Part shown: piece after piece, positions 1,712-26,118 of the stretch
Position numbering within the stretch: the stretch's first letter is position 1
Layout of the letters: every line of letters begins with the position of its first letter
Assembly (NCBI GenBank): GCA_040954595.2
Contig: CM082588.2
Span: forward strand, 434,001 to 498,000
Reading direction: 5' to 3'
Length of the DNA: 64,000 nucleotides
Origin: Balanoglossus misakiensis
Taxonomy: Eukaryota > Animalia > Hemichordata
Notes under the pieces: model-generated
What the model saw: the letters and a program-made list of their open reading frames with translations, nothing else
Told to the model about the DNA's origin: nothing
The model's database searches: none
Made by a program: the position numbers and the translations under genes

Positions 1712-1804
1712 TTTTGTCCTTGTCTTTATCTTTGTCTTTTTTGTCTTTCTTCTCATCTTTGTGATCTTTTTCTTTGGCTGGCTTCTCCGCTTTTTCCGAT
1801 TTTT
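1712..1804 (-). CDS. ADGB: ADGB exon 8 (K/D/E-rich linker)
   Basis: ctcctttgacag acceptor; KSEKAEKPAKEKDHKDEKKDKKDKDKDKDK; A|gtaagc donor. Confidence 0.85.
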
Positions 1805-4800
1805 CTGTCAAAGGAGAAATAACTATCATCATGAATTCAAGTAACAAAACCATTAGAAGTGTACAAATATCAACATACAGTCTGCAAACGTAAACATTTT
1901 AATGTACCAAATGAGGACAAAAATTGAGCAGATCCAAAAGTAACAGCACCACATAAAACTTGCCTTTTTCCTTGTCTTTCGTATCTTTTGCAGCTTTGTC
2001 ATCCTTCTTACCATCTTTACTCATCTCCTCTGTCTTACTGCCATCTTTCTTCACAGTGTCCAGGTCTGGAGCTTTTTGCTCCTCATGTTCTGGTAATTTG
2101 AATTCAGGCAGTAGTTTTTTCACAAGGTCCCATACCTGGTTGATGTGGCCGTACCTGTAATCAGCAAAGATATCTCTCAGTTTGATCTTCATTTATGTCG
2201 ATGCATGCTTGTCTTTCTCTTGAAAACTAATTTTAATTTAACTGATACTGCATGCCTACTACATGTATTTTCACTTAACTGGTATGAAAATTCACATAAA
2301 GTAATGGTTGAGGAAAATATTCTCTGATATCATTTGGCAAAGTTCTCCTAGTGCTATACATTCTAATCTGCTATACATCTATACTTTGCAATGTACTCTT
2401 TACTCTGCTATACATTCTATACTAGTCTATACTTGCCCTTGACTATTCTGACTATTCTGTCTATCTGTGTCCATGTTAGCCTTTATAAGTAGTTTCCTGT
2501 ATACTTCCCTTTCTGTAATGGAACTACATGTATACACAGAAATGCTGAGTACCTGTCTGAAGTGAATAATCTAAGTTATTTACTGGGAGCTAACTTGTCT
2601 GTAATCACAAAGCAAGTGATTTCATCTTTCAACTTCAGATGCACTGCCCATCCACCAACAGAATCCACAACAAGCAGTCTCACAAGTTATGTAAAGAGTT
2701 TCAAACTTGTTGTGATCTGTTTCACTTGTTTGGTCAGACCATGATGAAAATCAGATGTTATATTTCATCCTTCATCCAACTCCAGCAATATCTCTGTGTC
2801 TGAAGTGGAATGTACTTACTGTAGTGGTATTGTTTCTGGCAACCAGCCACTCAGACAGTGTATAACAGTCACATCTCCAAATTCACAGTTATTGCTTCCT
2901 CCATTATAACTGTAAAAAAAGGGAATGAACATTACAATTCATTCTGTACTGAACTGTTGGACTGTTTCATGTCAATATCGCATAAGCTGTCAGCAATACC
3001 GAAACCATTCAAAATACTTGAACTTTTTTCCTACTTTTCACTTCGTATTCACATTCAGTGGCTTGTTGTAATGCTCAAAACCATTTATTCGACACAGGCA
3101 GCTGACGACAGTGAAATTATTGCCTAGCAGTTGCTCTAGTGTTGTGTGAAATATTTGAGATCACAGAACGAAGTGGCAAGACTCACTCTAATGATGCTAC
3201 TTTGATGAGTGCTTTGGTGAGAAGCATTGGCCACAATTCCTGTTGCAATGTGGTGGCTGGAAGCAGCATCTTCTCATTGTCATCAAATGGAATGGTGTCA
3301 TCCACAACAATCTTACGCCATACTCCCTGTGAAGAAAGGAAAATGTGTGAATGTCTCAGAAGATTGAGCAGAAACACTGTTGAAACTGTTCCATGAAAGA
3401 AGAAATGATTACTTTATAACACCTGGAAAAACTTAATTCTGTCATGATGTATTAGAATGATACAATTTACAACACAACGCAATGCAACGCAAGACAAGAC
3501 AAGACAAGACAATACAACACAAGACAACACAAGACAACACAACACAAGACAACACAACACGAGACAACACAACACAACACAACACAACACAACACAATTA
3601 AAATACAATCCAATCCAATACTTACCATCCAATATAGTTTAACCACATATTTTCCATGTGGATTGTACGAGGGGACATGAGGTCCTTTTCCAACTTTAGT
3701 CATAGAAAAGATCTGTTCCCATGGTTTCCATGTGTGGTTGGTGGGTATAGAGAGTCCGGCACTGGCAGCAATGTCTTGGTCTGTTGTCATAGTAATGCGC
3801 CATAGTGTTGTGATTTGGCTGATTACCCATCTTATCAACTGAAACGGGGAAAAATGGCAGAGATAAAATATGCAAATACAAGGTTCACGATTATCTGCTG
3901 GGCCAGGCTAGTTTACGCAAAGTACGAGATTTTCAGAAACAATATCTAAATACGATATTGAGGTGTGATGCCACTTTCACACATAGTAGGGGTTTATCTG
4001 AAATACTAACCTCACTGTCATGGATGTGTTCATTGACGGCCATCAGATCAAAGTCTGTCACATTATCTTCAAAGACTACTGGGGGTTTATCTAAAATAAA
4101 ATCCTGAGGTCTCTTCCAATGATCCACTCTTCCTTTCAACGAGGGCGGCATTTCGATCTTCCCTTCAGGATCATCAAAGAAATGCTGCTGTAAACAAGAA
4201 AACACACAGGGATTATTATTTGAAATAACATCCATTTCTCAGCAGAGTTATATCTGTTCAAGATTTGGCTTGCAGTTGTTGATGTTGTTGTTGGCATTTT
4301 AAGATGTATGCATCATGTTGGTGGTTGCTTCGAGTTCCAGGAAAGCAGTCAAGTAAATGTTATTTTTCCTAGACTTTTCCATGGGTATCTGTTACTTTGT
4401 CGCTGATTTGCCGAGAGATAATTTTATCTTTCCATGACTGGTCTACTACAGGAGGCTGATCTTTGAAGCATTTGCTTAAAGTAATAGACCATGACTGAAC
4501 TCACCAGGTTTGGACTTTTCCCTTTGTCTTTTTCCTTTCCTTTGTGTGGAGCATCCCATTTCTCTTGATTGATATCCTGTTCTGTGAATTCCGGCCATAT
4601 CACTGGTTTATGTCTCTTGGCTTCTCCTGTTGAACCGATAACACTGGCAGCTATGGACGCAGCTCTGTAGACAACAAAACAGAGAAAACATCCTCAGATT
4701 GACTCTAAACTTGGCTGTCATACTAATAATAGATAGTAGAGAACTGGAGATCTCACTTTATGATGTATTGACTCCAAACACATTCCTACTGACAGAAGTG

Positions 4801-7800
4801 ATCACAGTTTCTCAGTGTCAGTTGCATTTCAAATAATTCACTACTTAATTCCTTTGATCACACACCAATGGCAAACACAAATTGACAACTTTATTGAAGT
4901 ACACTTTCTCAATCACCTTTGATTGAAATCACTTTAGGCATTTCTGATTAAACTGCACACCGCACAAACACAAATGGCCATTAGTACACATAAAAACTGT
5001 GACACCTGTTAAGGGGACTAAAACTCCTAAATTCCTCCAGTACAGAGTAAACAAAAGGCAATCGATTACCCTAATTAGTATTGATCAGTGATGAACTCAT
5101 TACTGTTCTAAATTTCACCAGAAATCAATTCACATTAGGGTCAACAGAAATGTAATACATGAACTTATGTATATTTATAGAATGCAATTCAAGTCAGGAT
5201 AACGTAGGAAAAAAAATTCACTATCAAAAGTACATGATGATTTCATGAGTGGTATGGTTATCAATATGTTCTCCTACAAGTTCACGAAAATTACAAAAAC
5301 CTGCTAGTACAGTAGCAGTATGTATTGTTCAGAATATCAATTCTGTAAATCCACTGCTGGTGACAAAAACTTGAAGAAACACTAATGGTCTTGCACACTA
5401 CAGCTGCAGCGTTTAAAATAAAGCGAAAGTTATCAGAATTCTATAGGACTATATAATTCTCCTAACAAACAAACTTGTATCCAGTAACTTCTCCACTTAT
5501 AGTCTTACCTCATAAACATAAGACTACTCCGCCTGCCACTAGAAGCTCTCTCTGGAGTGGATGCACGATCTTGCAAAATCTTTTTCATTTTTCCGAGACA
5601 ATCACCAGATGTGCGTGCCAAAAACCCGACACAGAACCCTACGCCCAGAAAAATGTTGCTATCAACAGACTTTGCTATCACACAAATTCTTGTAAGTAAT
5701 TTCAATCAATATTAAGACATTCCTACTTTCATTTAAGGGATACTAAACCATTCCTATATAATGTTTATTTCTTGTTCTTTTTACAATTTAAATAGGATAT
5801 ATTAGGACAGAAATAACATCAACATTACTTCTTCTCATAAAGTATAATGACAGAAAATAACCTTGATGATAAAAATATATTGTTATGTTTAATACAATTT
5901 TCTGAGTCTACCCTACTTGAAATGGTAGCATCTGTTAGCACAAGGGATTAAGAAAGCCAACGTTGACCAATTGTGAGGCTCAACCAATCAATAACTGTGG
6001 TACACAGCTACGACTGAAACCATAGAGTGTTGAATTACAGACAAGGAGAAATAATCGATCTAGACAAAGCCAATGAGAAGTCACTTATTGTTAACATCTG
6101 ACACAATCGCGTTACAATAAAAGTTTTCCTCTAGGGACTCATTATGGTACACTAAGGTTTCATTCATAGCTTTGGTGTGAAGGGAAGATTAGGGGATCAC
6201 ATCAATCACTTTTAACAATTTTCCAGAACTTTATTTTAGTTTCTTGTGCTTTATGTTGTTGTGTTCACTGAAATATGCTCCATGATTGGGTTGTCTCACA
6301 ACTCAACTATGTTTCTAGTATGTACAGTGTATGTTATGTGTATCTACAGGATTTTCATGTTTCTTGCAATGCCCAGAGTCCAGTTTGATCTCCATATAGA
6401 GAAATGGGGGTGTTCACACAGCCCCTTTTAACAATGATTTTCAAAAACAGACAACAGGCTTTCGGTGTCTTTCTCATTGATGACAATTTTTTTCAGAATT
6501 TTAAATTATACACATGCAAATCTCACATTCACCAGTGACCCCGTAGTGCAAGTCCCTGATTGGATGTCTCCACCAATGACCAGACACAGGTGCATATTCT
6601 GTGGGCTTTCCATTGATATTTATGAATATTCATTCATTCAAATCAACACCAGTGGTATTCTTGTTCAGTAGTGGTCAGTCTCATGTACAAAATTTGTGTA
6701 TCAATGCATACACACCAGATGTATGAATAATTTGTTTAGATTCATGCCTTCGGAGGTGGCCAAGTCACAGACAAGAGTGTCTTTCGTTCAGGTCAGTCAT
6801 GTTATTCAGGTCTCTACTTGCTGTCAGGACTTTGCCAGGGAAAGACCCATTTCCCTTTCCTCTTTTCACTTTCATTTACTGCCCTTGAAGCTGTCACTAC
6901 CTGAGGTAAGACATTTGTCCATGAACTCCATCTTGTCTTCAAGTCCAGTAGAAATGTCATAGAGTATGGGTGTATACAACTAGAAGGCTAAACCACTCCA
7001 TTTCAATTGCATGGCATTGGACAATACTTGCCCTTGCATAGCTGAACTGAAAATACATGTACACTGAATATAGCTGTTATGACTATTTCATTTGTGTCAC
7101 TTTATTGCTGTATTTGGCAATTGGATTTTACCTTGTTTATGCAGTACTTTTGCTTATTTGGAACTGTGTGTACCTCTTGTATAACAAATGATGTAGTGAT
7201 AGATGCTACATGGCAGAGTGTCATAAAGTGCCATTTAAATTACTGCACACAAGTGTAAAGCGTGTATTATTAGGGGCCGAAGCCTTGAAAGCTACACATC
7301 ATCATGAAATGAACATACGGGATTGTTTGTAAGTCGTGGGCTACGAATGGCCGCTTACTATTAACTTAATTAGATTCGATTAATGAAACTAAATAACTCT
7401 ATTTCCTCGCCATTGCTACTTTACTTTTTAATCAATCACAGCACCGCAGAGTGCACTGTCCGAAGTTGACAGGTAGTGTTTAATTTAAATATGAAGACAC
7501 ATGACGACAGTATTAAAAGACAAGCCCGTGGTTGGCTTCAGGCGGATTCACACTGTAACTCTATAGTCCGGCTAAACTACTGCTGCAACAAACGATATAC
7601 CCATTACACGTGCATACACAAGAAAGCGAAAATGCGATCGGGTACAAACACGGTGTCAAAACAATCAGATCACTCAACCGGTCACAACGACAGCCATCTT
7701 GGATGTCCAAAATAAACAAACTAGTCAAGCACTTACTCTTGTTTTGAAGCTGAACTAACTCTGTTTGATGAATCTTTCTTTTTAGCCTGTTTTGATGCCA

Positions 7801-7801
7801 T
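1712..7801 (-). CDS. ADGB: Androglobin, 5' portion (canonical exons 1-8, calpain-like N-terminal region); continues past the left window edge
   Basis: Spliced translation MASKQAKKKD...IWPEFTEQDINQEKWD...HFFDDPEGKIEMPPSLK...WKPWEQIFS...GKYVVKLYWMGVWRKIVVDDTIPFD...ELWPMLLTKALIK...VIHCLSGWLPE...VWDLVKKLLPEFKL matches vertebrate ADGB as I recall it (MASKQTKKKE...WPEWSEADINSEKWD...HFFEDPEGKIELPPSLK...GKYVVKLYWMGCWRKITIDDFLPFD). All intron phases are consistent. Confidence 0.95.
1964..2154 (-). CDS. ADGB: ADGB exon 7 (ends in a GC donor)
   Basis: attacag acceptor; YGHINQVWDLVKKLLPEFKLPE...KDKEK; AAG|gcaagt donor in phase 1, matching exon 8. Confidence 0.88.
2820..2909 (-). CDS. ADGB: ADGB exon 6
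   Basis: ttttttacag acceptor; YNGGSNNCEFGDVTVIHCLSGWLPETIPL; CA|gtaagt donor; phases 2/2 fit both neighbours. Confidence 0.93.
3187..3326 (-). CDS. ADGB: ADGB exon 5
   Basis: cttcacag acceptor; GVWRKIVVDDTIPFD...ELWPMLLTKALIKVASL (calpain-family WxxxxVDDxxP and ELWxxLLxKA motifs); GA|gtgagt donor. Confidence 0.95.
3468..3598. repeat. Compound pentanucleotide microsatellite (ACACA/AGACA)n in ADGB intron 4
   Basis: Visible 5-nt periodicity; it explains the spurious VLCC and TQHN ORFs. Confidence 0.92.
3626..3838 (-). CDS. ADGB: ADGB exon 4
   Basis: gtttcag acceptor; 71 codons LIRWVISQI...WKPWEQIFS...GKYVVKLYWM; ATG|gtaagt donor. Confidence 0.95.
4011..4187 (-). CDS. ADGB: ADGB exon 3
   Basis: tttacag|CAG acceptor (NAGNAG); QHFFDDPEGKIEMPPSLKGRVDHWKRPQDF...NEHIHDSE; GAG|gttagt donor. 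Confidence 0.93.
4505..4664 (-). CDS. ADGB: ADGB exon 2 (first constant exon; phase-2 acceptor)
   Basis: gttttgttgtctacag acceptor; 1 nt + 53 codons (AASIAASVIGSTGEAKRHKPVIWPEFTEQDINQEKWDAPHKGKEKDKGKSPNL); CTG|gtgagt donor. Confidence 0.95.
5509..5588 (-). CDS. Putative alternative ADGB first exon V1 (MKKILQDRASTPERASSGRRSSLMFM-R), inside canonical intron 1
   Basis: aaaATG start; 26 codons + 2 nt; AG|gtaaga donor in phase 2. Confidence 0.6.
7737..7801 (-). CDS. ADGB: ADGB canonical exon 1 (MASKQAKKKDSSNRVSSASKQ-E), phase-2 donor
   Basis: aaaATGG start; 65 nt = 21 codons + 2 nt; GA|gtaagt donor; N-terminus matches the vertebrate ADGB start MASKQ-KKK. Confidence 0.92.
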
Positions 7802-7899
7802 TTTTGACGCCAAACACGACTTTCTTTGGCGTCAATTTTCGTCCGATTTTGATCGGCGTAGCTCAATTTCTTTTGCTATAGCGTCTGGTACTAAGGGTG

Positions 7900-7947
7900 G
7901 TTGCCATGAACACAGGTCACGCTAACAATAGTGCAACGCATGCGCAC
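7900..7947. promoter_or_regulatory. ADGB canonical promoter: imperfect RFX X-box (GTTGCCATGAACAC) and NRF1-like GCATGCGCA
   Basis: Motifs lie 100-145 nt upstream of the canonical ATG. ADGB is a known ciliary gene regulated by FOXJ1/RFX in mammals. Confidence 0.5.
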
Positions 7948-9235
7948 TGACCCCATCCCACTTTCTCTATAATTTTCATGTATTTCGGGTATTTCGATGA
8001 AATGCATTCTTACAGTGCCATAGTTAAGAACCTCAACAGTTTTTTACAATTACGAGATATCTTGGCGACACATTTGTTTATAATATATGAAAATGCGAAC
8101 GCCATATTTGAAGCGCGCCCTCAAGGCACTTTAAAATTTGCAACTGTCGTTTTCAGTGGTTTTATTTTGGTAGACCACCAGGTACAACTCGTTCTCCCAA
8201 TGTAGACATGAACCTGGGAGTTTCATTCCAGACATTCTTTCAGAAGTTAAAAGCTCCCCAGGGCAGAGAGGTCATGAAAAGACGCATCTCCACTGAGTGA
8301 ACAAAACAACGAGTATTTTGAGATTGGCGTCACTAAGAAATGTTATAAGTAATATTATCATGACAAATTTAATTGCTGTTTGATGTCTCCATGTCAATGA
8401 GATATTGGCTCATTTTGTCGCCAACTTTTGTCGACTTCACCTATCATCATTACGTAATTCACGATTGAAGCATATGACAAGGCAGCTTTCTTGAGACAAA
8501 TTACGTCACTTGTTTGTAATTCTTTTGTCTTTCTAGAGTCGGATACCAAGAAGAAACAAACTTAGATATTGCAAATAAACACTGGGCTTATTAATTATTC
8601 GTCCCTTGAGCCTGTTGAGCCCAGACAACTTTTAGTATTGACACGATAGCCTTCGATAAAATAAAGTTGTTTTAGTCTGTAGTGTTCTTGTAATCAGGGT
8701 ACCGTTACTAAGCAACTGTAAAACATATCAACAACTGAGCTGAACAGTGGACAAAATGGCAATGTAAACTTGGGTTCAGAGTTGTATCAATCGGCGCAAT
8801 TATGTTCTACATCAATCATGGCGCCATTTTAAGGTAATTGTTCAAGGCAGAATAAGGGAAACCAGTCATTTGCCAAAGATAATGACAGACAATGCTTTTG
8901 CCCTCCGGCTTTGAGTTTACAGAGTGAACAGTTAGCATCAATTGAGTGAAAATGGACAATGCAAACTTATTGGAGAAGGCGGTTCAAGACCGCAGGCAGT
9001 AGAGCCACTGGTTTTTGGATTGAGTTTCAAAATGAAGCTTATGGATTGAAAATAACTGTGGAACCATAGGCCCTGGGGTCTATGGTGGAACTGTTTGTTG
9101 AGGGATTTACTGACGATATTGGCCTTTTAAAAAAATCTGGCTGTGGTTGTGTATGGATACGGTTTGAAACCAGTTTGGAAACAGATTTAAACTGTCGTAT
9201 ACAACACGATATCGTTATCATGGTGATGAGCTCAC

Positions 9236-9753
9236 CTGTCCCGCCAATAGTCGACATCGATACCCGATGGAACAATCATACGTCTGACATCATCGCCCAG
9301 TGGTGCAGACATTTTACGACCTGCATTCAAAACCGATTCGTCCATTCCTGGCAATGATGCTAATTTATCACCAGTGGGACTTGGAAACGCCGATGCTCGT
9401 CTCCCACCTCCCGTCCTTGTCATCTCGCTACCAGACAAATTAATGCTACTGGTCTTCTTGTCCCCGGCACCGCCACCACCACTGCGGCGGTCACCCCGAT
9501 TTCTACTCCTTTTCCCGGTCGTTGGAAGCAGATTGAGTTCCGGCACATTGTCTTCTTCTTCAACTTTGTCTTCCATATTAACGTTCACGGGAACTTCTAA
9601 TTTCCGTCCCAAGAGTTTCGAAGCTCGTTCGTACACCTCTTCAAGAGGGATCGGCAGTGTCGGATAAACGATTTCCCGATTGTACGTGGACATTTTCTCG
9701 GTTTGCCGATCCTTGTCCGGGTCAGGGGACACTCGGTCTCGTTTGGACGTCAT
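9236..9753 (-). CDS. Putative alternative ADGB first exon V2 (172 codons, MTSKRDRVSPDPDK...GIDVDYWRD-R)
   Basis: Longest ORF in the window, locally GC-rich and protein-like; 518 nt = 172 codons + 2 nt; CAG|gtgagc donor in phase 2. Confidence 0.72.
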
Positions 9754-9983
9754 CTCGCTTCGACAGACAAAATTCCGAGAGACTAGGTCAATCCATAAGT
9801 GTAATTTACGACCAAACGCGTAATAATGAAGCGCCCAGAATAGATTTCTTGTAGTGTTGATGACCACGAGATCAAAGTTTGTCTCCTCCGGTGGAACTTT
9901 TCGCCCGGGACGGTCACGATATCACCACTCGAAGTTACACAAAATCAAATCACGGTGACAAAATATAATGATAACGAAGTTAC

Positions 9984-10030
9984 CCTTTGCTTGGTGCGAA
10001 CATGTTTACTATTTGAACTCCACTGATCAT
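9984..10030 (-). CDS. Weak candidate alternative first exon (MISGVQIVNMFAPSK-G)
   Basis: Phase-2 GG|gtaact donor at the end of a 99-codon open frame. The first ATG is late and the donor is weaker. Confidence 0.28.
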
Positions 10031-11430
10031 GATCGGTTGGTGTGTACGTCTGTCAATCACTCCATTCTCTTCAGGTGAACCCAAATATTCGATTAAAACG
10101 CGGAGTGTAGGTAGATCGGTACGTAGCGATCTGGTCACTCTGGTAGGAATTTTAATGCAGCGCAAATGTGGTCCATATAAAGAATCCCAAACACAAATTC
10201 CCGTCGGAAATCGTGATACACGAACAAACAAGAAGTGTACTTGATACACGAACAAACACGGTGTCCACTCGGTTAGCAACGAAGCGTTGCGTGGCTAAAA
10301 TGCCATCAGGAAGAGGGCGCTTTGGTGATAATCCTTTTCACCTGGTGGAGATATGCGTTGCGTTTCAGAGTGCTTCGTGCACAACCACCTGATAGTCAGT
10401 AGCTGAAGTAGCTAGGCTCCCTGTAGTTTTGTTTGCGGTCGGATACGCTTTGATGTCTCAATCGATTGATACGACAGCGATGGGCTGCTGCAAGGTTTTT
10501 GTAAATCTAATAGTTATTTGAGTATTTTGTTTACCTAACGGTTTACAAACCTTTTCTTTTTACTTGTGGAGAAAATCACGGTGAATACAGGCAATGGACA
10601 ATGAAGCTTTCAAGGCAGTGGAAACATAAATTTGCCTAACACTGAGACCTACGCCGGTTGCAACGTCGTGTTAATGGCTGAAAAAATTCAGAGTAAGTCC
10701 TTTAGATTCATCCATCCAGACAGGTCACTGACCATTAGCTAAAACAATTGAATATTTACTTTGTTTGAGTGTTAATCTATTACGGCAACATGTATACGCT
10801 AAAGATTAAAATTATCTATATTTTTGAATGGCAAAACTGATTAGGTAATCTTAGAATCCCATTTGTGATTTAACCGTTATCTTTGGATAACTGTCTGTTT
10901 TTAGTCATGGTCCTATCCTAACGGAGTGCCATTTTTCCGCGCTTCAATTGTGAGTCGAGTAATCACGGCATTTCCTTGTCATAGATATCTGAGCATCTGT
11001 AGTATAAAACCATTCGTGGATCAATATTAAATCGTTACGTGATATCGATTCACAATTCTATCCCCTTTCCCGTCGTAGAAACCGTGATAGGCGCCATCTG
11101 CGGTAGATTCTATAATTCTGTCTCAACCAGGTGAAGTTTCAGTAAACACAATCTGTCTCACACTTGTTACAGGCTATAATGTTAGGGATTCTATGTAGAT
11201 CGCCTAGGAAGTACATAGACATTCATGGCATACAGGAGCTCGTCTGAGTAAACATTGTCCCCTTAATTCGATTTATAAAGGACTTGTTCCTCTTTTAGTC
11301 TTTCATTAAGCTTATCACAAAATATTAATGGTTGGAGAGTCTGCTATGTTTTGATAACCTCAGGGAGAGTTCAATTAATTCTAAAGGTGAGGGCCGAGAG
11401 TTTCTTCAGGTTATTATATACCCTACTTAC

Positions 11431-11705
11431 CCTCTGTGTCTAACGACTGGCAATTGCACGTGTTGAGATGAAGAACCCTGGTGCACATGTACTGCCGGGG
11501 AAGTTGGTGGTGGTTTTGACGAGACCATACCAGGAGGTCTTTTCGTCTGATCTCGTAAGTCAGACTGTGACACAGTCCAACTGACGGACAGAGTTTGCAT
11601 CCTCGCAGTGTCTGGCAGTGGTGGGCTGCCATCGCCTGCACCAGACGACGAGCCAGAGGCACTGCTTTCTGGCGGCGTGGCTGGTTCGATACTTATACGG
11701 TGCAT
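11431..11705 (-). CDS. Putative alternative ADGB first exon V3 (MHRISIEPATPPESS...VVRHR-G)
   Basis: aaaATG is the first ATG after an in-frame stop; 91 codons + 2 nt; S/P-rich; AGG|gtaagt donor in phase 2. Confidence 0.68.
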
Positions 11706-14625
11706 TTTCTGTCACGGTTGTGTCGGGGAAAATTTCCGGTACCACTTATCGGAAAGTGTACGGTATTAGGTGCAGTAATGGTTAATATTCCTCACAACCT
11801 TTCTCCGACACTTTCTGTTTCTCTAAGCAATTGCTCTGACGATGGCGACTGACAAGATCACAGTCCATCGGAATCCAGTGACAGCTTCATTCCAGCAAAA
11901 TGTGAGATTAGTTTTTGTATAATTCAAACAAGGCCACGTTCAAAATAAACCGGCTGAAAAATCCCACCTGATGGAGAACCGGTTTCTTGAAGTGGTAGAG
12001 AGCTTGAATTGCTGCGCTCGCCGACGTCTTACAAACCAGTCGATACTTCTTTGCAGTGTGAACCTCGATTGAAATATGATGCAAGCTGAACATAGAGGGC
12101 TGTAGCGTTACTTTCGTGTTTAGTAATTAGAGTCGTCTCGGATTTGTTCAAAATCGACGATTGCGCGTTAATGACGATGCAGCCACTCACGGGATAATCC
12201 AAACCGTTGATTGAAAAGCGTTCAACCAAACAAACAATTGAACAATGGTGGCGATACCCACATGAGGATGAAAACGATCATCACTCCACAGTTTCTTCAG
12301 TCGGTTTGATCTTCAAAAAATTCTCTTCAAACGAAAGCGTCTGTTCTGTCCGTTCGATGGAGAATTATCCCCGTATCACTGTCGCTCTAAATACATGTAG
12401 ATCAACCGTAACGATGGGAATTTATATCCAGATAAAAAAAAACGATGACGATGCTGTGTCTGTAACTACATGGTTTTACGTCGACATCAGAGGTAAAGCC
12501 AATCGCATTACGCCTCTATATCTGTCAGTATTGACAAATCACGAGTAAAGTAATGTCCATTGTGTTGTGATTTCCATCAACCTTTTCCGTCAATGCACTT
12601 AGATGACCCCGAGTGAAGTAGTCCGATAGTGAGTCTGGGCGCTAACGCTCTCTCAGCCTCTGAGACTGCTATACTCCGCTATGGATGTGATTGAATGTGA
12701 TAGTCACAGTTTAGACGCCGGCGAATTTCACATAATTACACACCTGGGTCAGTACACGGAGATGCGCCCGTCGCCTTCCGTTTCATCTAATGACAATGAA
12801 CCTGACCCTATTAGTCACAAACAGAAAGCTTTCCAAAACACCAACATGAGACGAAACCTCCGGAAAATCAGCTTCAAGTACATAAAAAACGCATCAGCGA
12901 CAATTGCTCAGTAAGCAGGTTCCACTTGGGTGTTACTTAGCAACCGAATGGAAAGATGAAGATTCAGGGAAAGATGCTGCTTCTCCATGGAAACGAAACC
13001 CCGACAGAAATCAACAGAAAGGAGTTTCTTTCACTAAAATGGCTTAATCAGTTTATCTCTAACTCGAATTATTGACTGGTACATGTAGTAATGAAGCTCA
13101 ATATGATTATCGACCAGTTTATATTTCAATTTCAAAATGACCTTGTCGCTAAGGTAGTTACATGCATGGGATGTAGACTTGTTTCGACGCTTCACTACAC
13201 ATTAGAGATAAAACTTAAAATCCCAGTATAAGGTATCTCCAGCTGGATCGCCGCAGCAATAGAGTTCTTGTAAGCAACACATTAATATTGATTCTTCAAA
13301 ATACACCATGGCACCATGCCAATCAAAACGAATCAATTCGCTGATTTCAGAAGTCTGTATTCATTTTGGAGGAGACGCGAGCGTACTTGATGATAAGGAA
13401 ACATTTTTGTTAACAAATTTGAAAAGTAACTCCGGACAATGAACTTTGGAGTTAGAATGAAATAACACTATTGTGGGCATGACCAGACATTCTTCATTAT
13501 ACATATCAATGGGATGACTCCATCTCACTTTGTTCTCACAAATTCACATAGGAAGCGTCACAACACGTGTCTGCAGGATATTCGTGACACACCAGAGGAT
13601 ATTAGTGACCTCCCCAGAGAATTTCTGTGACCTCCCTACAGGATAATGGTTAATCCCAGGTGGTTTCCCCCATGGGATATCGGCGACTTCTCTCAACACG
13701 AGCAAACCACATGAACAGGAACTTTTAACTCTTTTCATCAACCCGCTTCAAAGCGCGTCAAATTATAATCTTACTAACATCTATCCCTTGTCAGGTATTA
13801 AGAATTTTAATCTCCGTGATTTCATTGTTAACTTTAAAATGATCTGTTCATTCTTAAACCTTGGACTGATTCACGTTTATTTGAAATCCGCTGTGAATTC
13901 CATTCAAACCACGTAGCATTTTAATGTCATATTTGTTAATGTCTGTCACAAGTAGCTTTCTCTAATAAAATCTTTCATCGATGAGATGGAATTAACAACT
14001 ACCATGGCATGGCAGTGTTATACTCAATAATAAAACCCACAGAGGGGTTTCATCATTAACAAGCATTATGATTTGTCAGTAATAGCGCTGTAGAAAATCT
14101 GACTCGTACACAAACAAAACTGTCAAATACCTCAGTTATTCTTCAGCGAGATTCCTTTGAAACTGGTTTACATTTAAGATGGCTTCGAGAAATATCTGAC
14201 ACAAAATGTCGATGGATACGGATGCTTTCTATCCTGTGTTATCTAGCTCTGCGGACAGATGTCTCTTAGGTAGAATTTAATAAAAACGTAAAGTAAAGAT
14301 TGATTACTCTGTAAACACTAGAGAAAATTAATGACTGGATACATGTAATTGTAAACGTACACAGTGGAGTGACGCTGCTAAAATTTACACATCTAACTAA
14401 AACTCAGTAATTTCGAACTTATTCCTGTATACATCCAGGACTATATTAACAATTTCTGACTTGGATATATTTATCTTTCAAACCTGTGTTCTGAGAGGAA
14501 GGTTAAGAATACTCATCCGTCTATCCATAAACATGACAGACAACCGCGGGCAGTGACGATTGCATTTTGTTCGTAACCTTGTCACACACTAAAAACCCAG
14601 ACTGATTAATAGCGCTGGAACATGT

Positions 14626-15789
14626 ATTGTCATGGCAACGCACCTTATCGAAATCCCTGTTTTTACGAGAGCAGAGTCTCTGGTTGGGGTCAAAGGTCGT
14701 TGTTAATAGCTTGAAGTACTTGCCATCACATGACCTGATGCTTTCCGTCGATAAATTCGATTCTGATCAAAGTTAACCCTTCCTCTGAATCTCTCCGCAC
14801 ACTAATAGATTCTAGTTACCATGACAACTCTGGTGTGAGGTTTTCCTTCTACATTTTTCGGCCACAAATCAGGCATTGATTTTTATTTTCCAAGCTTTGT
14901 ATCACATAGAAAATGTATACGCGTAAGGGTGTTCTCATTAATTTTAAGAGGGGGGCAGGAATAATCAAAACCTGTCACTTCTGATTTTGATTTCTTCTTC
15001 TTCTGATTTTCACATTTGAGAGAGAGATTGAAACGTGTTATCAGTGAAAAGATGAAAAACTACGGCACTGTACCAAATTTCTCAAAATGCATCAGACCTA
15101 CAGGATGCCAAGTGTCCGCGATTTGTTGTCATGGAAACGGCAAACTCCGAGTTCTCATTAGTGATATTTCACTGCCGATGTAACACTTCGATAGGGAGAA
15201 AAACTGCAATAATCGTGTTATCTGTAGAACCCTTGTTAGTTTCCTTGGTAACGAAGGACTCGATAGTGAAATATTAACGAAACTTTCAAGTGTGTGTTAG
15301 AAAAGTCCTTCACATTGACCTGTTTCAGATAAATTATTATTTCAACCCGAGGATTCTCTTGTGATAAGAAAAAACATCGAAACTGTATTATTGTTTTCAT
15401 TGTGACCTGTGTCTGTGTGGACGCTAAGCCCTGTCTGTATTCAGCGCTATAGTCGTGCATGGACCAGACCTGTCGCTGTGTACAGGCCGTGAATAGGGCA
15501 GCCCTGCCGCTGTGTCTGGCTAACATGTGGAGTGATCCTAAGTAAAGATCTGAATACAAATAATGTCAAATCAGGTTTGATAAGCACATATCCACTGTTT
15601 TAGAATGAAGCTAATTATTTCAATCATTTGGTCTGATTGCTCTCCGGGCAGCAGCAACATACCAACTTTAAAAACGCATTTTCCTACTTTTTGACACCTC
15701 TTCTTGACATCACTTTGGTTGTCATGGTAATGGTAATCACACCATGTGAGAACCATAAAACGATAGCATTTCATTGTTGCCAAGGTGAT
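14626..15789. promoter_or_regulatory. Dense cluster of RFX X-box-like palindromes
   Basis: ATTGTCATGGCAAC 14626, GTTACCATGACAAC 14815, GTTGTCATGGAAAC 15125, GTTTCCTTGGTAAC 15239, GTTGTCATGGTAAT 15718, GTTGCCAAGGTGAT 15776. Confidence 0.6.
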
Positions 15790-16428
15790 CAGCCGATCTA
15801 CTCAAGTACATGTAATCCGACTCTGATCGTAGGTGGCGCACCACCATTCCTAACAAACTATAGGTTCCAAGGAGATAATGCATTGTTGTGTGATCATGGT
15901 CATGATTTGGGCTCATGGTCGTTCTAAAGAGCGTCAAGATTCATTGAAAATCACTGGTGTCTGCAAATCTACACCAACCACATTTAGACCTAGAGGGATT
16001 GATCCTCAGAATTAAACCAAAGAATGAAATACAATTGGTGTGCTTTCATGGAGTAAACGAAATGATTTCTCGCATGAAAACACACTGTGTCAATAGAACC
16101 ACTGTATTTCAACCTCCAAGTTCTCCAACTAGGCTTTCAAAAGACCGCTTCGAAACCTACTTGCTTGTAGTTAATTATAGAACTACAGTTCTTCAAAACA
16201 CTGCTTTCATAATTACTTTCAAGACGTCTGGTTTGTAAACTTTGGTCAAACTGTCACGATAGCAAAGTTCAGTCACTTTTGAGAAACTCTAATGAGCTAA
16301 TTAGCGACTTAAATGGAAACTAATTAATCTAACACAACACCAATCTGGACTACAAAAGAATCGCTTGTGTTGGTCGCAAGAAATTTCGAGAAGACGCAAC
16401 ACAGAAAAGAAACTCAAAATTGACTCAC

Positions 16429-16613
16429 GATTCCGACTTCGTAAGTTTACTTCTGTCGCTGCCCGCCGAGCGTTCTCTTTCTTTCAGTAATCTTCTTTTC
16501 TCTCCCGGCATATTCGACAAGCGACTGACCCCACGGGCCGACTCGGCTATGGATTTCAAGGGGATAAATTTTGGTTGCTGTGGGTTGCTGTATCCCGTGC
16601 CTTTCTCCGCCAT
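16429..16613 (-). CDS. Putative alternative ADGB first exon V4 (MAEKGTGYSNPQQPKF...SKLTKSE-S)
   Basis: aaaaATGGCG start; 61 codons + 2 nt; TC|gtgagt donor in phase 2. Confidence 0.68.
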
Positions 16614-16906
16614 TTTTACACACTGCGCGACACGATACAGCGGACCCCAGTTACCTACCAACTATGAGAATGAATTATTCAGAAGTTTTTTTGTAGGGCT
16701 TCCGGATTCATAATGTTTTCTTCGCGTAACACCTGCTTGTAATTACTTAGACCTAATGATATGCGAGGCAATTACTGTGTGGACGAATTGAACTGCATTG
16801 GAATGCATTACCTTGACTTCAGACTAATGTTTTGTACACGTCAAATAAAACCATATGTGTGGAAAATGTTCTCTGACACCGAGATGTTTTTTTCATTTGC
16901 ACATAC

Positions 16907-17013
16907 CTCTTCTGGCTCGTCATGGCGCTCAGTCCACCTGCGTCACCTTTTTCTCCCTTCCCTTTCTCGGCAGATTTTGCTGCACGGGTCGTGGGACTCG
17001 CTGGAGGTTCCAT
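16907..17013 (-). CDS. Putative alternative ADGB first exon V5 (MEPPASPTTRAAKSAEKGKGEKGDAGGLSAMTSQK-R)
   Basis: attATGG start; 35 codons + 2 nt; GAG|gtatgt donor in phase 2; X-box-like site 140 nt upstream. Confidence 0.68.
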
Positions 17014-18975
17014 AATTAAAATGCTTTCAACTCAATCTTTCACAGTCCATGATCAAAACAGGTGGTGCAGACAGAAATTCGTTGTTGAACTTTCTGAGCA
17101 GTCCTGAACGACAGGTGCTTATTCTGAGACGTTTAAACAAAGGTTAGGCGCCGTTGCCTTGACGACAATTTTTAGAAGCAACAGAACAGGGCAGTATCAC
17201 TTTCTCTGCCTTTTGTCACCGTTCGGACGTCGAATGGGGGATAGTTTTACAAATATTGTTTGTAGAGTCTAATGTCTCATTCATAAGTTATCCGATACAA
17301 TTTGACCGGTACCAACACGTAAGAACACATACTTTCATTTGACACTTAGAGCTGCGATCGTATACGATCTGCGCCTGTCCAATTTTCCTATTTATAGGCA
17401 ACGTATTCCATTTAAAATATCTGAAGGGCGGCCATTAATTGTCAGCGTATCGGAGCTGTGGCTGACAAACTTTCCTGTCAGTGTGTATAGACAACCATTT
17501 CAGCTGAAGAAGACTGCCCTCAACAAATCAACAGCTGTTACCGGCATTTGTGGCCTGTGTATCAACTATACTGTTTCTTGGTCAAGCTTTTTCTCCCAGG
17601 GTACTTTGCATAAATATATAATTTGAGTCAACTGATGAATTCGACGGTGCCTTGTCCAATGCATGACTTCCGCTATGTTGACTTCTGCGCGACCCTTGCT
17701 TGTTGACACAAGAATTTATAGTATTCAGCTCTGTCGTTATGGAAACAAACTGACCCACACTCCAGCCTTCCCGAGTAACAGTAAACAGTTCTCAATGCTA
17801 ACAATAAAACGCAACACTTTAACAACATGTTCTGTCCGTCGCTCGACAGCACATGGCCATAAGCAACTTGTAACGGTGGACTTATGTTTGTGAAACATTT
17901 TGAAAAAACTACAATAAAGATTAACTTGCTTGTAAATTTGGTAAAGGTACCATCAAAGTCGATTTCATAACGTGGGTTAAAAGTACTCGTGGTATCGCTA
18001 CAGGGTTAGGGATTTTGGTAACTTGAAATACAATGTACACGCGCTGAAACCCTAACTACTGCAACCTGCTTCAACAACCGTTGACCCGAATATATCTGTA
18101 AGTGGCTGCAAATTGCCACTGGATTGATTTAAAATGAAACCTTTGCCAGCGTCAACTTCATGCTGGCCTCTCTCAAGTGACATTTTATTCGGGTCAGCGC
18201 TACACTGGCAACTAAAAGGTCTGCCCTCATAGGCCTATCCTCAATGCCACCTGTTGTACACATGTTTGAAGACAATGAACTGACCAATCAGAAACAATCT
18301 CACAGACCCCTGCACATATTCTCTTTGTCTATTTTACTAAGGAGTTTTGGCCAATCGATATTTGTGAATCTTCTCGTCACAAATGATTATCTGTTATGCA
18401 TCTTATTGCAAGAACCAGCTGACCAAGAAATTAACCGATCACAAAATATCACTGTGGACCATTCAGAGACATTCGAAACCTTTTTTTCTCAACAAGAAAG
18501 ATATGAACCCCATAGCTATATACTTGGTACATGTATGTACTATCGCAATGCGTGAAGTTGCCGAGTACACGTTTCTACATTTAGACATTTGTTTATCTTG
18601 TGTTGAGTGCACTTGAGTGTCCGAGCACATGTTGTAAAACAAAATTTCTTCATATTTTGCTTTGTATCGACATTTTACACTATCAATTTCATATAGCTTC
18701 GGATAACGCCACGATCCGAGTCATAATGTCTGAAAGTTAGAAGTAAGATGGACTTTCGGTGCCAAGATAGAATTTTGTCGTCGCTTTGTGCATGGATTCT
18801 GTTGGTTGTTATTGTACCTTCTCAACAAGTCCCAGAAAGATAACGGTTGTAACTATGGACAAGAGTACCTATGTGTGACAACCGGGTTGGACGCCGTTCG
18901 CGTCGTTGGTAGGCGCGCACGCGTTGCCAACTTCATGGAGGTTTGTCTGAAATAATGGAGGCAAAGGCAACTCAC

Positions 18976-19055
18976 CTAAATATACTTTTGATACTGAATC
19001 TTCGTTTTCTTGCGGTGGGTGGGGTGTGGGGTAGCGGCGAAGAAGATGACGTCAT
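18976..19055 (-). CDS. Putative alternative ADGB first exon V6 (MTSSSSPLPHTPPTARKRRFSIKSIF-R)
   Basis: gctATG start; 26 codons + 2 nt; TAG|gtgagt donor in phase 2; X-box-like site about 170 nt upstream. Confidence 0.65.
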
Positions 19056-21506
19056 AGCAATCGATTTGGTGAGCGTCTATCGGTTTTTGGCCAATACGTC
19101 ATCTGTAGAATTCAGCGCAAGCCCGCCTGCAACTTGGACAGCATTTTGTGTACTTTGTGACACTGACGAACAGAGCGGTAGAAGTAACAACCTGCGACCG
19201 ATGACGCCGATAGGCTAGGTACAGTAGCCTTGGCAACCGGTGACGCCCTCATCTAGTACTTGATGACTCTTACAGCAGGGCAATATACCAAGTTTGTTTA
19301 TAAATACCCTATCGGTACTAGACTTGTTCAAAACTGATCACACTAAGACAGCAATCACCTGATTGGACAGTGCCTTTACTTTGTATATGTGGGATGTGCG
19401 CACAATCCACCAGGCCAACTTTCTGTAAAACTGACTGTACAAGAATAAAAACCCCTCTCCTTCTCAGAGCTTCAAGACAATAGCACCGACGCAGTATACA
19501 AACTGCAATGACAGTTGATATCAGAGAATAGAATGTACAGGTCATTAAGAGCAATCAGACCCAATTATTTAGATTAATTTGATACCAGTTCTCGTTACCT
19601 TGACGACATAACTTTGCTCTTATACTATTTGACCGGCGGCTCGATCACGATCCATTGCGTCGCTGCCAAAGGTTATAACATCGGACCAAAGAAGCCTCCA
19701 GACAAAAAACAAGTCCCATTATTACAATGTGCATATGCTTGTCGGCGTAAACGTGAAAATACATGAACTGCAACTACTCAATCGTCGTATTGAGAAAGAC
19801 TTTAAGGAAAATAACACGAGTTCTTTCAACGGGTAACAGTTAAGAGTCAGTACAAGCAAGTGCTAACACCGCCCTCAAGCGGCCCTCCAGAAAGGTCCTT
19901 GGCAAGGATCGTCAACAGTAAGAAACACAACAGATTCAATGAAGCGTACAGAACCGTCTTAAGCCGATAAGCGCACACCATAACAAAGAGAAAGACTAGT
20001 TTTCGAAGTCCATAAACACCCTAACGTTTAGTTTATGTGTGTATAGTTCCCGTCTATACAGAAGACAGAGACGTTTCCCCTGTACTGTATACTTGCTATG
20101 TGAAACTTTAATTTATTCAGGAGTCCAATTGAAGTGAGTGTTAACAAAGTATGATCATATATATTAGAAGGCAAAACTTCCCCACCCATCTAATGCCAAT
20201 GGTGCGATTTCATTTCTGGATGATCGACCTACAAAGGAACAAAGACCCTGTGGCATCCTCATGTCTTATGTTAGAATGTAGCCTTGAGGGAAACAATGAC
20301 CCACGCACGGTACGTGTCATACACATGAACCAAAGTCGAATTCAACCGGACAGACGCTTGTTCAACGCTGATTTATTTTGCCCGTATTTTATTTGGTTAT
20401 GTTTGTCAATAAAAAGAAGACACATGTGTATGTTGGTGTCACCTCTCGTCGCGAGATACCCACATTGCTGTCATTGTTATCAACCGGTTGCCAAGACAAC
20501 GGGTCGTATATTTACGAGAATGCGACTCCTCTTACAGAACTGGTCAACTGTGTTATTTCATTGATGGCACCAACTACCACATAACTTCTCTGACGAAATA
20601 ACTACTTCTAAAAGTGTTCATTTGAAGTTTGATGAACCCTGCCATGTGTTGTAGGCTGTACTGAAACTTCTCAGTTTAATTGATTGATCACAATCGAAAT
20701 AACTGGAGCACGGTTTCACAACAGATAAAATACCATGGATGTCCCCTGGGCTACATGCATGATATCACTTGTAAACATAACAAAATGAAATACAAGAACG
20801 ACAACTTTTAATATCATTTGCAATGCCTTTCATTTTGGTCAGACATTTTTTCTCTCCATAGTACCGAAAATGATAGTCGTTTTACCGCTGATTGGCGTGC
20901 CTAGGTGCAGCAATCAGCACACAATTTTGTACCATGCGAAAGCTTATGTTATTTTAATACAAAGATATAAAATGTCAACGGGTAGAATGGAATGATTAGT
21001 TTTAAGAAAATAAACATGTCATGATTGAAAGGTGACTTAATCCATCCTGAACGAACGGACCGGTGTAAGGTAGCCAAAAAGCGCGCACATACCTATTTGA
21101 TCACCCAAGTTAGTTGATATCTTAGTAAAAGTTTCTCCAATAAGCGTGATCATGGTATGTACAGTCGTCCAGACAATAACACTATAGTATTCTGACCTCA
21201 GACGATAACGCCATCATTGCCAAGTTCTCCTTGAAGCGTGACATTCTGCTGTCACATGTAAAGATTCACAAACCACCAAGGTAAAAGACAAACGCTGGGA
21301 AATAATGCGTAATCAAAGCGCTTAAAATCCAATGTCATATATTATGATCAGCAACACTTACGTGCAATTGCCAACCACCAGGGCAAAAAGTGACCACAGC
21401 TAAACCTGACAAATTGGCATATAAGTGTTTGAAGTTCTCTAAAAAACCGTTGTCAATAAAAACATGAGGTCGTATTGTTGTGGTTTGATGAGGAGCCGTT
21501 ACTTAC

Positions 21507-21631
21507 TTCCACAAATTGGCCGTTCTCCTCGATCCAGGACGGGAACCAGCACTCGACCGGTCATCGTGTTCCTTGTGATGATGTTCTCGAGCAGCGCGTA
21601 CTTGAGCTTGTTTCACTAATTTAAGAAACAT
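21507..21631 (-). CDS. Putative alternative ADGB first exon V7 (MFLKLVKQAQVRAAREHHHKEHDDRSSAGSRPGSRRTANLW-K)
   Basis: ataATG start; 41 codons + 2 nt; GAA|gtaagt donor in phase 2. Confidence 0.65.
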
Positions 21632-24600
21632 TATTTTGACTTGACTTGACTTGGTTTTGCATGGATTGACCTCGTTGTGCTCTGGCCACCGTTATATTCC
21701 TGTGAGTCACACACACCGCCTCCACAGGTTGACACCAGTAAAACACCGTACAACAGACAAGCGATACAACACGCTCACCAACACCACTATATTGGCCCGA
21801 CATGACCCACAGCTTTGGAACATTCCATTCAGTAGGAAAACCAACGGGTTTGCTTACTTTGCTATCACCATAAAAAGAGAGACTTTAGATGAGAAAAGGC
21901 CAAAATGTTGATGTAGGATTAACTTACCAAAACTTATTTTAAACGAATAATTTATTGGACTTTATTGCAATCAATTTATTAGTAATCCTTGATTGGTAAA
22001 CTCACACGGATTAACTACAAATGCGTCTCTGCTAGACGGGACAACCCATCTTTGCGAGGTGGGTAGGGGTGTTTAATAGAAACCCAGGCTGTGGCTGCAA
22101 GGCCAAACACCCGGACAATATTGCAAGACCTTCTAATACATCATGATTTGCACGATCTTAGGCAATAGCTGCCTTAAGGTAGAATGGACGATTCTGTTGC
22201 TGGGCAACGTCAGCCACGCCGACTGATAATAGTGTCATTCACGGTTCAACTGGCTCAGTAAAGATTAACAAACGACCTAGGGCCCATTGACGACCAGGAA
22301 CCCGACCGATTTATCATGCGAAGTTTCATGTATGCCACTGATGGCGCCATTCGTATGGTGGCCCTCAGTAAATCAATCCCTGCATACGGATCGTATTAGT
22401 GTTTCTATACCTTTGATGTATTCAAACAGCTAATATCTCTTTGCAGAAACACTGTGTCTACAGAAGAACTAATGGATATCGTTAAATCGAATGACGCGTC
22501 AAGCTAACATGTCTTTAAAGCAGGTTATGAAACAGTTTCATTTCATTTAAAATGAAGGATTTTTGCGAGCAAAATGTCATTTCCTATCGAACAGGTGGTT
22601 GAACACAGTTATTTATATATTAATGCCAATTAAGGATCTCTATATTTATTAATATCAACGTACACACAATTTTTGTGCGACGTCTGGCAAGTCACGTGGT
22701 TTCAGCCATTAATCACCATATTGAATTAAAGTAATTTAATCAGAAACGCCATTGTTCGGATCATACTTGTAACCATGGCAGCAGCTTCTAGCTTAACCCT
22801 AGAAATGTTAGTAGCCAGCAGTTGTGACCCTTAAGGGGGAGAAATGAGGCGTGTCCAATCGCTTTACTGAAGTATTATAAGCATTCAAGACAGAACAAAA
22901 AGATAAGAATGCGTTTCAGCTTTGTTGCTTTTAATATCTTCCAACCTCATAATATTTACTTCGAGTTGCGTAGTGGGACATTCCAAGGATACTTGTTGGT
23001 CCACAATCGCTAATTCCTTTAAAATTTGATCCGTTTTACGCGATTCCCATTGAAAAGAATATCTTCTTTTGCCTATCTCTTTCATTTCCTCAGCTCTCTG
23101 GACTGGTCCAACAGAATTGTGCAAATTAGACGTGCGTGATAAAGCTGTTGCGTAACACAGATCTCGTCTATTTGCTCACTGATGCTTTTGTTTCCTGGCA
23201 ATTAGCAGTTCTATGCCACTTATGCGGGAAATATACTCATTTTGGAAAGCAACCAAATACGGCATCCTCATCAGGCTATGACAAAGTTTTGTTAACCACA
23301 GACTCCCTATGTGATGTGTGCCGGCAGGGAAATGATATATCAAAGCTATTTTCCCTAATTTATAATAACAACGATTTTAATATCCCATTATTATTGCCCG
23401 TAAGCCTCGGTTTAACTATATAGATCATCAGAGACATCTTGTACCAAGTTGTTGATAAATGTCCAATATGGTAGAATCTCCAAGGCAACCAGCTAACAAA
23501 CAATACCAGAAGGCATACAGGTAATGCTGTTTGAAATCAAACTACGAACATTTAAATCATCATGAATCTTCATTATGATATTGAGTTGATGGATTAATTT
23601 AAAATTGGTTGCACATATCTTAAACGTTTCGTATTATCAGGAAATTAAGACGATCGATTATTTTTTTAATGGCTACATACAATCATTTGCTGTGTGCATA
23701 ATTATCGGAGAACCGTGACATTTTGAATACTCTCACATCTGTGAATGTTTCAAGAATGGAGAGCCCTGGGCAAACCATTCTCTGGTGTATATGCAAAGGC
23801 CTGAATGTTCAGTTTACTATGTAGTAATGAAAAACATGTCAGCAAAGGATATATACCTTTTAAACACGTTCCCGTGGAACGTCACAGAACGGTTCGTTTT
23901 ATCGTTTCTTTTTCTCTTCATTTATCGACGACCCGGGTTATTCGTGTCTCCAACTGCGTGCACTCCAGGGGAGCGTGAAATTATTCATGATTATTTTATT
24001 TAATAATTCATCATACTCGTGTGAAAGAGAGTACATTTTTAATTTTTAAAATGCATATTATCGCTCTCTGTAGATAATTTCTCCACAGTTGTCATCCGGG
24101 CCACCGGGGACGTCATAGGAATTGAGATGACACTACAACATGTAAAAGAATCTCTGAAAAGGATGGTATACTTTCTACCTCCAGGGCTTGACTATCTAAA
24201 CTGTTCACATAATGCAAACTGTTGGTATCTGCAATTCGTTGACAATGCAATGTACATTGACTCACATTGAGTTGAAACTGAATAGAGTGGCTCTACAAAT
24301 ATACACGGTGTGCGTTGTGCAATGGTGATCGACACTACAAGCGTCAACTCTTTCAAATCAGCCAAACATTTCAGAGAATCACAGCCAATCCTATCAGGCT
24401 GAATAAAAACGCTTTTAGTTCCGTATACTAGTAAGTGGGTTTTCTGAATAACAAACTGGATATCCGGAGAGCATTTAAAGTACCAAAACTTACTGCAGAA
24501 CAAGTTGTCACCTTAAAAGCGATCTCTAGCCATTATTAAGTTATAATTACGAGCTTTTGTGGTGTGGTTCCGTGTTATATTAGAAACAGCAATCGGACGT

Positions 24601-25012
24601 CAATATAGAACATTTGGAATAACTCACTTATTCTGTAAATTTTAACTGAAGCTTAGGTATGTATGGCTTGGTTCCAAATAGCTTTGGAAAACACGGTGTG
24701 TATAAACGACCAAAGGCTTGAAAAGGTGCGAAAACAGGTGACACAATGTAACTGAACACACAAAGCTAATAACAGCTACCGACAATAAAATAGAACCAAT
24801 TAAGGGCCTTTTCAGAAGCTCTAAAAGCTATGATGTAGTGGGAATAGCTACCAGTACTTGAATACAGTTAACTCAGAATATAAAACGACAGATAAACGTC
24901 AAAAGTAAAAGCGAAGCCTGTTTTAAACAATCTGAAACTGATCAGAATGTCCACATTCAAACAGGTTGTTGTCGTTATCAGTATAATTGCTAAGTAACAA
25001 GCGTTTACTTAC

Positions 25013-25128
25013 GCATGTTTGAGTGACATTCGTCGCAACAAGCCAGCTGTCCTGGATGGCGTTCGCGGTGACGTTGCTGCCATGGTACCCGCAGCTGGTA
25101 GACGCAGAAATGGGTTTGACTCCTGCAT
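25013..25128 (-). CDS. Putative alternative ADGB first exon V8 (MQESNPFLRLPAAGT-MAATSPRTPSRTAGLLRRMSLKH-A)
   Basis: Two in-frame ATGs (25128, and accATGG at 25083); GC|gtaagt donor in phase 2. Confidence 0.62.
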
Positions 25129-26088: not shown

Positions 26089-26118
26089 TGCGCATGTGCA
26101 TTTGGCAAAGATGGCGGC
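26089..26118 (+). promoter_or_regulatory. VTA1 core promoter motifs: NRF1-like TGCGCATGTGCA and YY1-like AAGATGGCGGC overlapping the ATG
   Basis: Direct motif match next to the start codon; typical of housekeeping promoters. Confidence 0.5.

Follow-up and report, generated by a model that had tools for sequence, protein, structure and literature searches.

The question raised by this locus is how a gene that is kept in single copy may still offer a choice of proteins. The locus is the 5′ end of the androglobin gene (ADGB) of the hemichordate Balanoglossus misakiensis, contained in a window of 64,000 nucleotides (the whole stretch of DNA analysed; contig CM082588.2 of assembly GCA_040954595.2, positions 434,001 to 498,000, numbered here from 1). 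Androglobin is reported as a rigidly single-copy core ciliary gene in a 2026 study, in which same-species variants were set aside as possible isoforms or annotation artefacts (PMC13331133); in a single-copy gene, variation at the 5′ end would be favoured over duplication. The explanation that we prefer, with a probability of roughly 0.7, is that a single androglobin gene possesses nine unrelated phase-2 start exons with their own start sites, and that these provide swappable basic tails which would tune one ciliary protein, most likely through sites for the cyclic adenosine monophosphate (cAMP)-dependent protein kinase (PKA).

An initial annotation of this DNA, made from the sequence alone, described nine units on the minus strand upstream of ADGB exon 2, and all nine are present at the coordinates given in Table 1, each with an ATG start, an open frame and a length that leaves a remainder of two on division by three. 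They comprise 21-172 codons and are followed by the donors gtaagt (four units), gtgagt (two), gtgagc, gtatgt and gtaaga; all are in phase 2, which fits the exon 2 acceptor. As was also claimed, the encoded peptides are mutually dissimilar (36 pairs compared, best score 37), and tblastn located no constant ADGB exon among the variable units. At the DNA level the repeats of the 20 largest families (26 in all) are no longer than 29 nucleotides, and no family is tied to the units. The constant body was traced with the androglobin of the acorn worm Ptychodera flava (P0005), to which exons 2-7 are 75-98% identical by tblastn; for exon 2 alone the identity is 98% with P. flava, 91% with Glandiceps and 83% with Saccoglossus. 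In Pfam, P0005 matches Peptidase_C2, Globin and Androglobin II, IV and V, with a weak IQ match, and it is through this protein that the gene is recognized as androglobin, with calpain-like, permuted globin, IQ and androglobin domains, the window holding its first exons only.

Table 1. Features of the window, with positions counted from its first letter.
Feature	Position	Strand	Remarks
ADGB constant exons 2-8	1712..4664	-	gene continues past the left end of the window
ADGB exon 2	4505-4664	-	acceptor at 4664
ADGB exon 3	4011-4187	-	tblastn with P. flava androglobin
ADGB exon 4	3626-3838	-	tblastn with P. flava androglobin
ADGB exon 5	3187-3326	-	tblastn with P. flava androglobin
ADGB exon 6	2820-2909	-	tblastn with P. 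flava androglobin
ADGB exon 7	1964-2154	-	tblastn with P. flava androglobin
ADGB exon 8	1712-1804	-	read directly from the sequence
Variable exon	5509..5588	-	26 codons with one RRxS site; lies in intron 1, 3′ of the canonical exon; no homologue among the matches listed
Canonical first exon	7737..7801	-	form common to vertebrates and corals
Long variable exon	9236..9753	-	172 codons
Variable exon	11431..11705	-	91 codons
Variable exon	16429..16613	-	61 codons
Variable exon	16907..17013	-	35 codons; donor creates no stop; no homologue among the matches listed
Variable exon	18976..19055	-	26 codons; RRxS-hydrophobic site also in P. flava
Variable exon	21507..21631	-	41 codons; no homologue among the matches listed
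Most distal variable exon	25013..25128	-	38 codons; one RRxS-hydrophobic site; no homologue among the matches listed
RFX X-box-like palindrome cluster	14626..15790		6 of 12 array matches to an X-box consensus; no adjoining coding unit
VTA1 gene	26111..31610	+	head to head with the ADGB array; about 1 kb past the most distal unit

The proposal that variable coding first exons feed a constant androglobin body gains direct support for five units from P. flava models, and indirect support for the other four from their composition. Among the 34 RefSeq models of the P. flava androglobin-like cluster, the 15 that were compared carry five N-termini, every one joined to exon 2. The matched units align with them from start to junction at 59-100% identity, namely the 7737 unit (22/22 residues identical to X30/X31), the 9236 unit (116/173, 67%), the 11431 unit (54/92, X22), the 16429 unit (52/62, X23) and the 18976 unit (22/27, X28), and in all five the window sequence correctly predicted the junction residue. 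For the 172-codon unit, one protein was matched among 1810 candidates, the P. flava androglobin-like isoform X9; this long exon is also found in Saccoglossus (51% identity) and in five echinoderm species (27-32%). The bodies of the P. flava proteins (P0001-P0015) span 1762-1831 residues, a variation that implies alternative splicing within the body, by which the choices at the N-terminus are multiplied.

The common phase of the units exceeds what chance offers. The initial annotation had feared that gTAA and gTGA stops, by mimicking phase-2 donors, biased its search, and it proposed comparing donor phases with control regions. In the enumeration that was made, every consensus donor was taken in all three phases and scanned upstream only, the stop created by the donor not being used; phase 2 accounted for 13 of the 22 ATG units of at least 20 codons on the minus strand between 4.7 and 28.5 kb, whereas three control strand-regions together gave 10 of 43 (Fisher p 0.005). 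When donors were scored with a matrix trained on 10 donors from outside the array, the excess had p values of 0.04, 0.012 and 0.006 at thresholds 5, 6 and 7. The bias thus does not account for the excess of phase 2.

Are all nine exons used? It is unlikely, though by no means negligible, that use is confined to the five matched exons, some or all of the 5509, 16907, 21507 and 25013 units being chance frames or decaying exons, an outcome that would be compatible with the main mechanism. These four have no homologue among the 15 P. flava models compared or the other matches listed, the 25013 donor is the weakest of the nine (below 5 bits with the trained matrix), and the earlier reader may have picked protein-like frames by eye. 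A search with exon 2 for longer proteins gave 36 matches and no new hemichordate start, and the 21507 peptide had no match among 50%-identity representatives, a weak negative since isoforms collapse there. Against this stands a composition score built on tails of other species, which is matched by just 2 of 244 chance frames for the 5509 unit, 0 of 140 for 16907, 3 of 116 for 21507 and 1 of 124 for 25013; for the units confirmed in P. flava it is reached by 0-13 of 116-321 chance frames. Five other phase-2 frames and a candidate at 28099 have ordinary composition, and the four of the 13 phase-2 units that lie outside the nine (8014, 23180, 26537 and 28099) are chance-like. Moreover, three of the four unmatched units have donors of 7.8-10.1 bits (9.5 for 5509 and 10.1 for 21507). 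They would yield proteins of 1873, 1870, 1867 and 1858 residues, and five of the 19 P. flava models not compared, X24-27 and X29, fall at 1859-1892 and 1853-1859 residues as deduced from the length order of the other 15; these slots are consistent with the four units but do not prove them.

Two further candidates were noted. On the minus strand at 19599-19609, an ATG opens a frame of three codons that ends at a phase-2 donor and overlaps an X-box-like site; it is possibly a missed tiny exon and equally possibly chance, and amphioxus and abalone models include starts of 4-5 residues. A tenth unit at 28099-28142, in VTA1 intron 1, was rejected because its composition is chance-like (matched by 162 of 337 chance frames) and an acceptor of 10.1 bits stands 55 bases before it. 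The 99 bases at 28099-28197 (minus strand) have this strong acceptor, a gtaagt donor, a local rise in CpG and an X-box half-site at 28340, and may represent an exon, either of an antisense RNA or of a far ADGB leader.

Choice among promoters is quite probably the means by which one exon or another is selected. Within 300 bp upstream of the nine ATGs no acceptor exceeds 6.8 bits and five units stay below 3.5 bits; the seven true ADGB acceptors score 6.6-11.9 bits. There is a small chance that one upstream promoter instead supplies a shared non-coding leader, in which case splicing would choose among the units as mutually exclusive second exons that each bring an ATG. Such an arrangement would agree with the clustering of X-box-like sites away from the units and with acceptor-like sites of 5.8-6.8 bits upstream of four units, which count against separate promoters, and exons of the 5′ untranslated region would be invisible in protein records. 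It is opposed by the five units, three with orthologues among them, for which the best acceptor within 300 bp does not exceed 3.3 bits, by the position of the 5509 unit downstream of the canonical first exon, and by the human gene, in which exon 1 is reported to have its own promoter, regulated by RFX2 and FOXJ1 (PMC7949040).

Input from the same factors into separate promoters is conceivable in the acorn worm. X-box-like sites were sought with six patterns, four of them RFX consensuses and two half-sites written after viewing the sequence; matches to an X-box consensus number 12 in the array and 2 in 31.7-64 kb, sites at one mismatch number 4 against 0.5 in shuffles, and four of the six patterns exceed the distal control. 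One such site lies about 145 bp upstream of the 16907 unit and another about 175 bp upstream of the 18976 unit, and the cluster listed in Table 1 is a possible shared enhancer. Two near-perfect X-box palindromes at 1464-1642, in a CpG-poor stretch of the intron after ADGB exon 8, may likewise form an intronic enhancer. A k-mer comparison of the array with 31.7-64 kb gave nothing significant after correction; the top 8-mer (8 occurrences against 0) is one that we take to be forkhead-like. CpG depletion marks the ADGB and VTA1 bodies but is absent from 7-26 kb, as would suit a regulatory stretch free of methylation; 31.7-64 kb is CpG-rich too.

The tails themselves are predicted to be mostly disordered and, apart from that of the long unit, appear to be mostly lineage-specific. 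All nine are net basic and seven have at most 62 residues; no Pfam domain was found above cut-off in the six units examined, and a search of PDB sequences matched only FAP42 of the Chlamydomonas type, from residue 73 on, leaving the tails without a match. The long unit has a conserved stretch at about residues 24-50, common to hemichordates and echinoderms, which overlaps the only confident helix (37-48) of a single-sequence model (predicted template modelling score 0.21), the rest being low-confidence coil. Homology of this ambulacrarian exon to the mollusc long exon was considered but not supported (hhalign probability 1%, E 0.052).

Unrelated as they are, the tails share a short motif. R-R-x-S/T-hydrophobic is the textbook PKA consensus, which other basophilic kinases fit too. 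In 39 non-redundant tails from outside the hemichordates, picked by hand, 31 instances of RRx[ST] were counted, where shuffles predict 6.8, and 13 of the form followed by a hydrophobic residue, where 1.0 is expected; S or T stands two places after the RR pair in 31 of 46 pairs. The excess is specific in its spacing, since the reversed arrangement is flat (9 against 6.8), as are most other spacings, and RRx[ST] reaches a density of 15.9 per 1000 residues in tails against 1.2 in low-hydrophobicity segments of the body. In the window, RRx[ST]-hydrophobic occurs three times in the eight non-canonical tails (0.2 expected) and RRx[ST] is present in four of them (p 0.02), against none of 21 canonical starts. 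The tails are predicted, from their sequences, to carry kinase control sites. Separately, a basic amphipathic stretch of the F/W-K/R-K-L-A/L type was seen in mollusc, nemertean and amphioxus tails (P0040, P0048, P0059, P0070, P0085, P0155 and P0292), and presumably resembles a calmodulin-binding helix.

A reading in which genuine promoters were selected because they give expression in a range of ciliated cell types, while the tails are by-products that are tolerated and have no role themselves, is improbable. The predicted disorder and mostly lineage-specific nature of the tails would suit it, as would the fact that some have only 4-7 residues in other species and that about half lack the motif. 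Tails without a role, on the other hand, would hardly account for 59-84% identity and retained length between two acorn worms, for a long-exon core kept across hemichordates and echinoderms, or for a motif excess tied to one spacing. Finally, units belonging to another gene, or artefacts of donor-mimicking stop codons, have a minimal chance of being the answer, since, although gTAA and gTGA donors do end an open frame in phase 2, the P. flava models refute this for five units and the phase excess survives unbiased enumeration. Another host gene, such as RAB32, which we take to be a neighbour of ADGB in human, was dropped once those models joined five units to ADGB exon 2.

Two findings go beyond the initial annotation: the PKA-type motif shared by the tails, and the recurrence of the layout in database models of other invertebrates. 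In a survey that covered the best 120 among 547 homologues and parts of 20 clusters, with counts made by eye and pooled over related species, the models listed show distinct N-termini at the same exon 2 start, at least 10 in Branchiostoma, 9 in oysters, 6 in Haliotis, 5 in Mytilus, 4 in scallops, 3 each in Lineus and pocilloporid corals, and 2 in the ascidian Clavelina. Only 1 of 99 distinct tails, many of them related, ends in a residue for which the third codon base must be a pyrimidine (background 14%), in line with the use of one phase-2 acceptor. Whole proteins of 1736 and 1827 residues with non-canonical starts (P0050 and P0269) are encoded by two assembled contigs of 6358 and 5752 bases, and these starts are identical or almost identical to those of oyster and coral models; the contigs barely exceed the coding length, so that their sources are most likely spliced mRNA. 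Vertebrates appear to lack the array: from 95 records, limited to tetrapods and coelacanth, 18 that were fragments or had no anchor were dropped, and 75 of the 77 anchored full-length proteins have the canonical start, the other two being bird models without it.

Several observations weigh against the preferred reading of nine start exons with their own promoters and tuning tails. The P. flava RefSeq models are automatic predictions; in Glandiceps only the canonical start is found (6 of 6 models), and in Saccoglossus only the long one (2 of 2). At donor threshold 8 the phase excess (4 of 5 against 1 of 5) has a p value of 0.10 and is not significant. Two of the six X-box patterns have no regional excess, X-box-like sites upstream of the units are at chance level (1-3 of nine for the six patterns), and 7-26 kb is CpG-rich throughout, so that separate islands are not distinguishable. 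RRx[ST] is carried by only four of the eight non-canonical window tails and 15 of the 39 foreign ones, and two neighbouring spacings are mildly raised as well. In keeping with the X-box counts, neither these sites nor the repeat families reveal a shared conserved element before each unit; clustered protocadherins have such a promoter element before each variable exon.

On the preferred reading, the region would be opened by ciliogenic factors, in the manner of RFX2 and FOXJ1 at the human promoter, and each cell would start transcription at one exon, perhaps according to its type, with that exon then spliced to exon 2. The tail would sit on the constant protein, whose place in the central pair would be the C1b projection if the mouse model applies; there ADGB is located in the distal C1b together with SPEF2 and calmodulin (bioRxiv 10.1101/2025.11.10.687652), and phosphorylation of a basic tail may alter its charge and contacts. 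In invertebrates, ciliary beat frequency is described as generally set by cAMP (PMC7017327). A wider idea, which is conceivable yet doubtful, is that animals with many neuron-controlled cilia, from corals to amphioxus, diversify an unduplicable central-pair protein by start exons that arise unrelated in each lineage and converge on PKA sites, a promoter-chosen switchboard setting the cAMP response of each cilium type, and that in vertebrates the array has been reduced to a single exon. The locus itself shows how a single-copy ciliary gene may gain diversity without duplication. It supplies probes specific to single isoforms, by which cilium types in larvae, gills and sperm could be told apart, and candidate sites for cAMP action on the central pair; where invertebrate ADGB expression has been pooled by gene, as many as nine or ten proteins may be concealed in the data.

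As for its surroundings, the array is bounded by VTA1, whose last exon has a Vta1_C match (E 7.6e-18) and whose first exon, without a Pfam match, we take to be 26111-26225 by comparison with known VTA1. A search of Rfam gave no match. The last VTA1 intron holds a 41-base minisatellite in nine copies (30753-31119), and in the 32 CpG-rich kb from 31700 to 64000 no gene was recognized by eye, without a database search, among frames of at least 80 codons. Within the constant body, the intron following ADGB exon 7 is of the GC-AG type (donor gcaagt at 1963-1958, minus strand), and the frame into exon 8 fits.

No variable-first-exon array had been known to the initial annotation for androglobin, and none was found in full-text literature searches, subscription papers and supplements lying outside their scope. 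The layout is recorded, unremarked, in RefSeq, where the isoform models X1-X34 of P. flava already encode these N-termini as automatic annotation only, and where similar sets exist for Branchiostoma, Crassostrea, Haliotis, Mytilus, Lineus and Stylophora; the pattern across phyla was unexpected, and the kinase signature is testable. Mammalian ADGB shares the canonical exon 1, the constant body (calpain-like, globin and IQ) and control by RFX2 and FOXJ1, but differs in having one described promoter (PMC7949040). The initial annotation likened the array to plectin, UGT1A and the protocadherins. The last two comparisons hold only for tandem variable exons upstream of constant ones in one splice phase; their variable exons are reported as very similar duplicates encoding a folded domain (PMC1885805), whereas the ADGB units are non-homologous, are not paralogous duplicates, and encode tails predicted to be mostly disordered. 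The comparison with plectin (PLEC) stands, as about a dozen of its first exons are described as splicing into exon 2 to give one large cytoskeletal protein short, differing N-termini (PMC8468861), of 5-180 residues (PMC2064082), against nine exons of 21-172 codons here, and in both genes dissimilar coding exons are joined to the same exon 2, in ADGB for five of the nine through P. flava models. Plectin tails set expression and disease pattern, whereas the role of the ADGB tails is a prediction, and ADGB further differs in being a single-copy gene for a ciliary calpain-globin chimera, in having an array that belongs to invertebrates, and in the convergence of its unrelated tails on a PKA-type motif.

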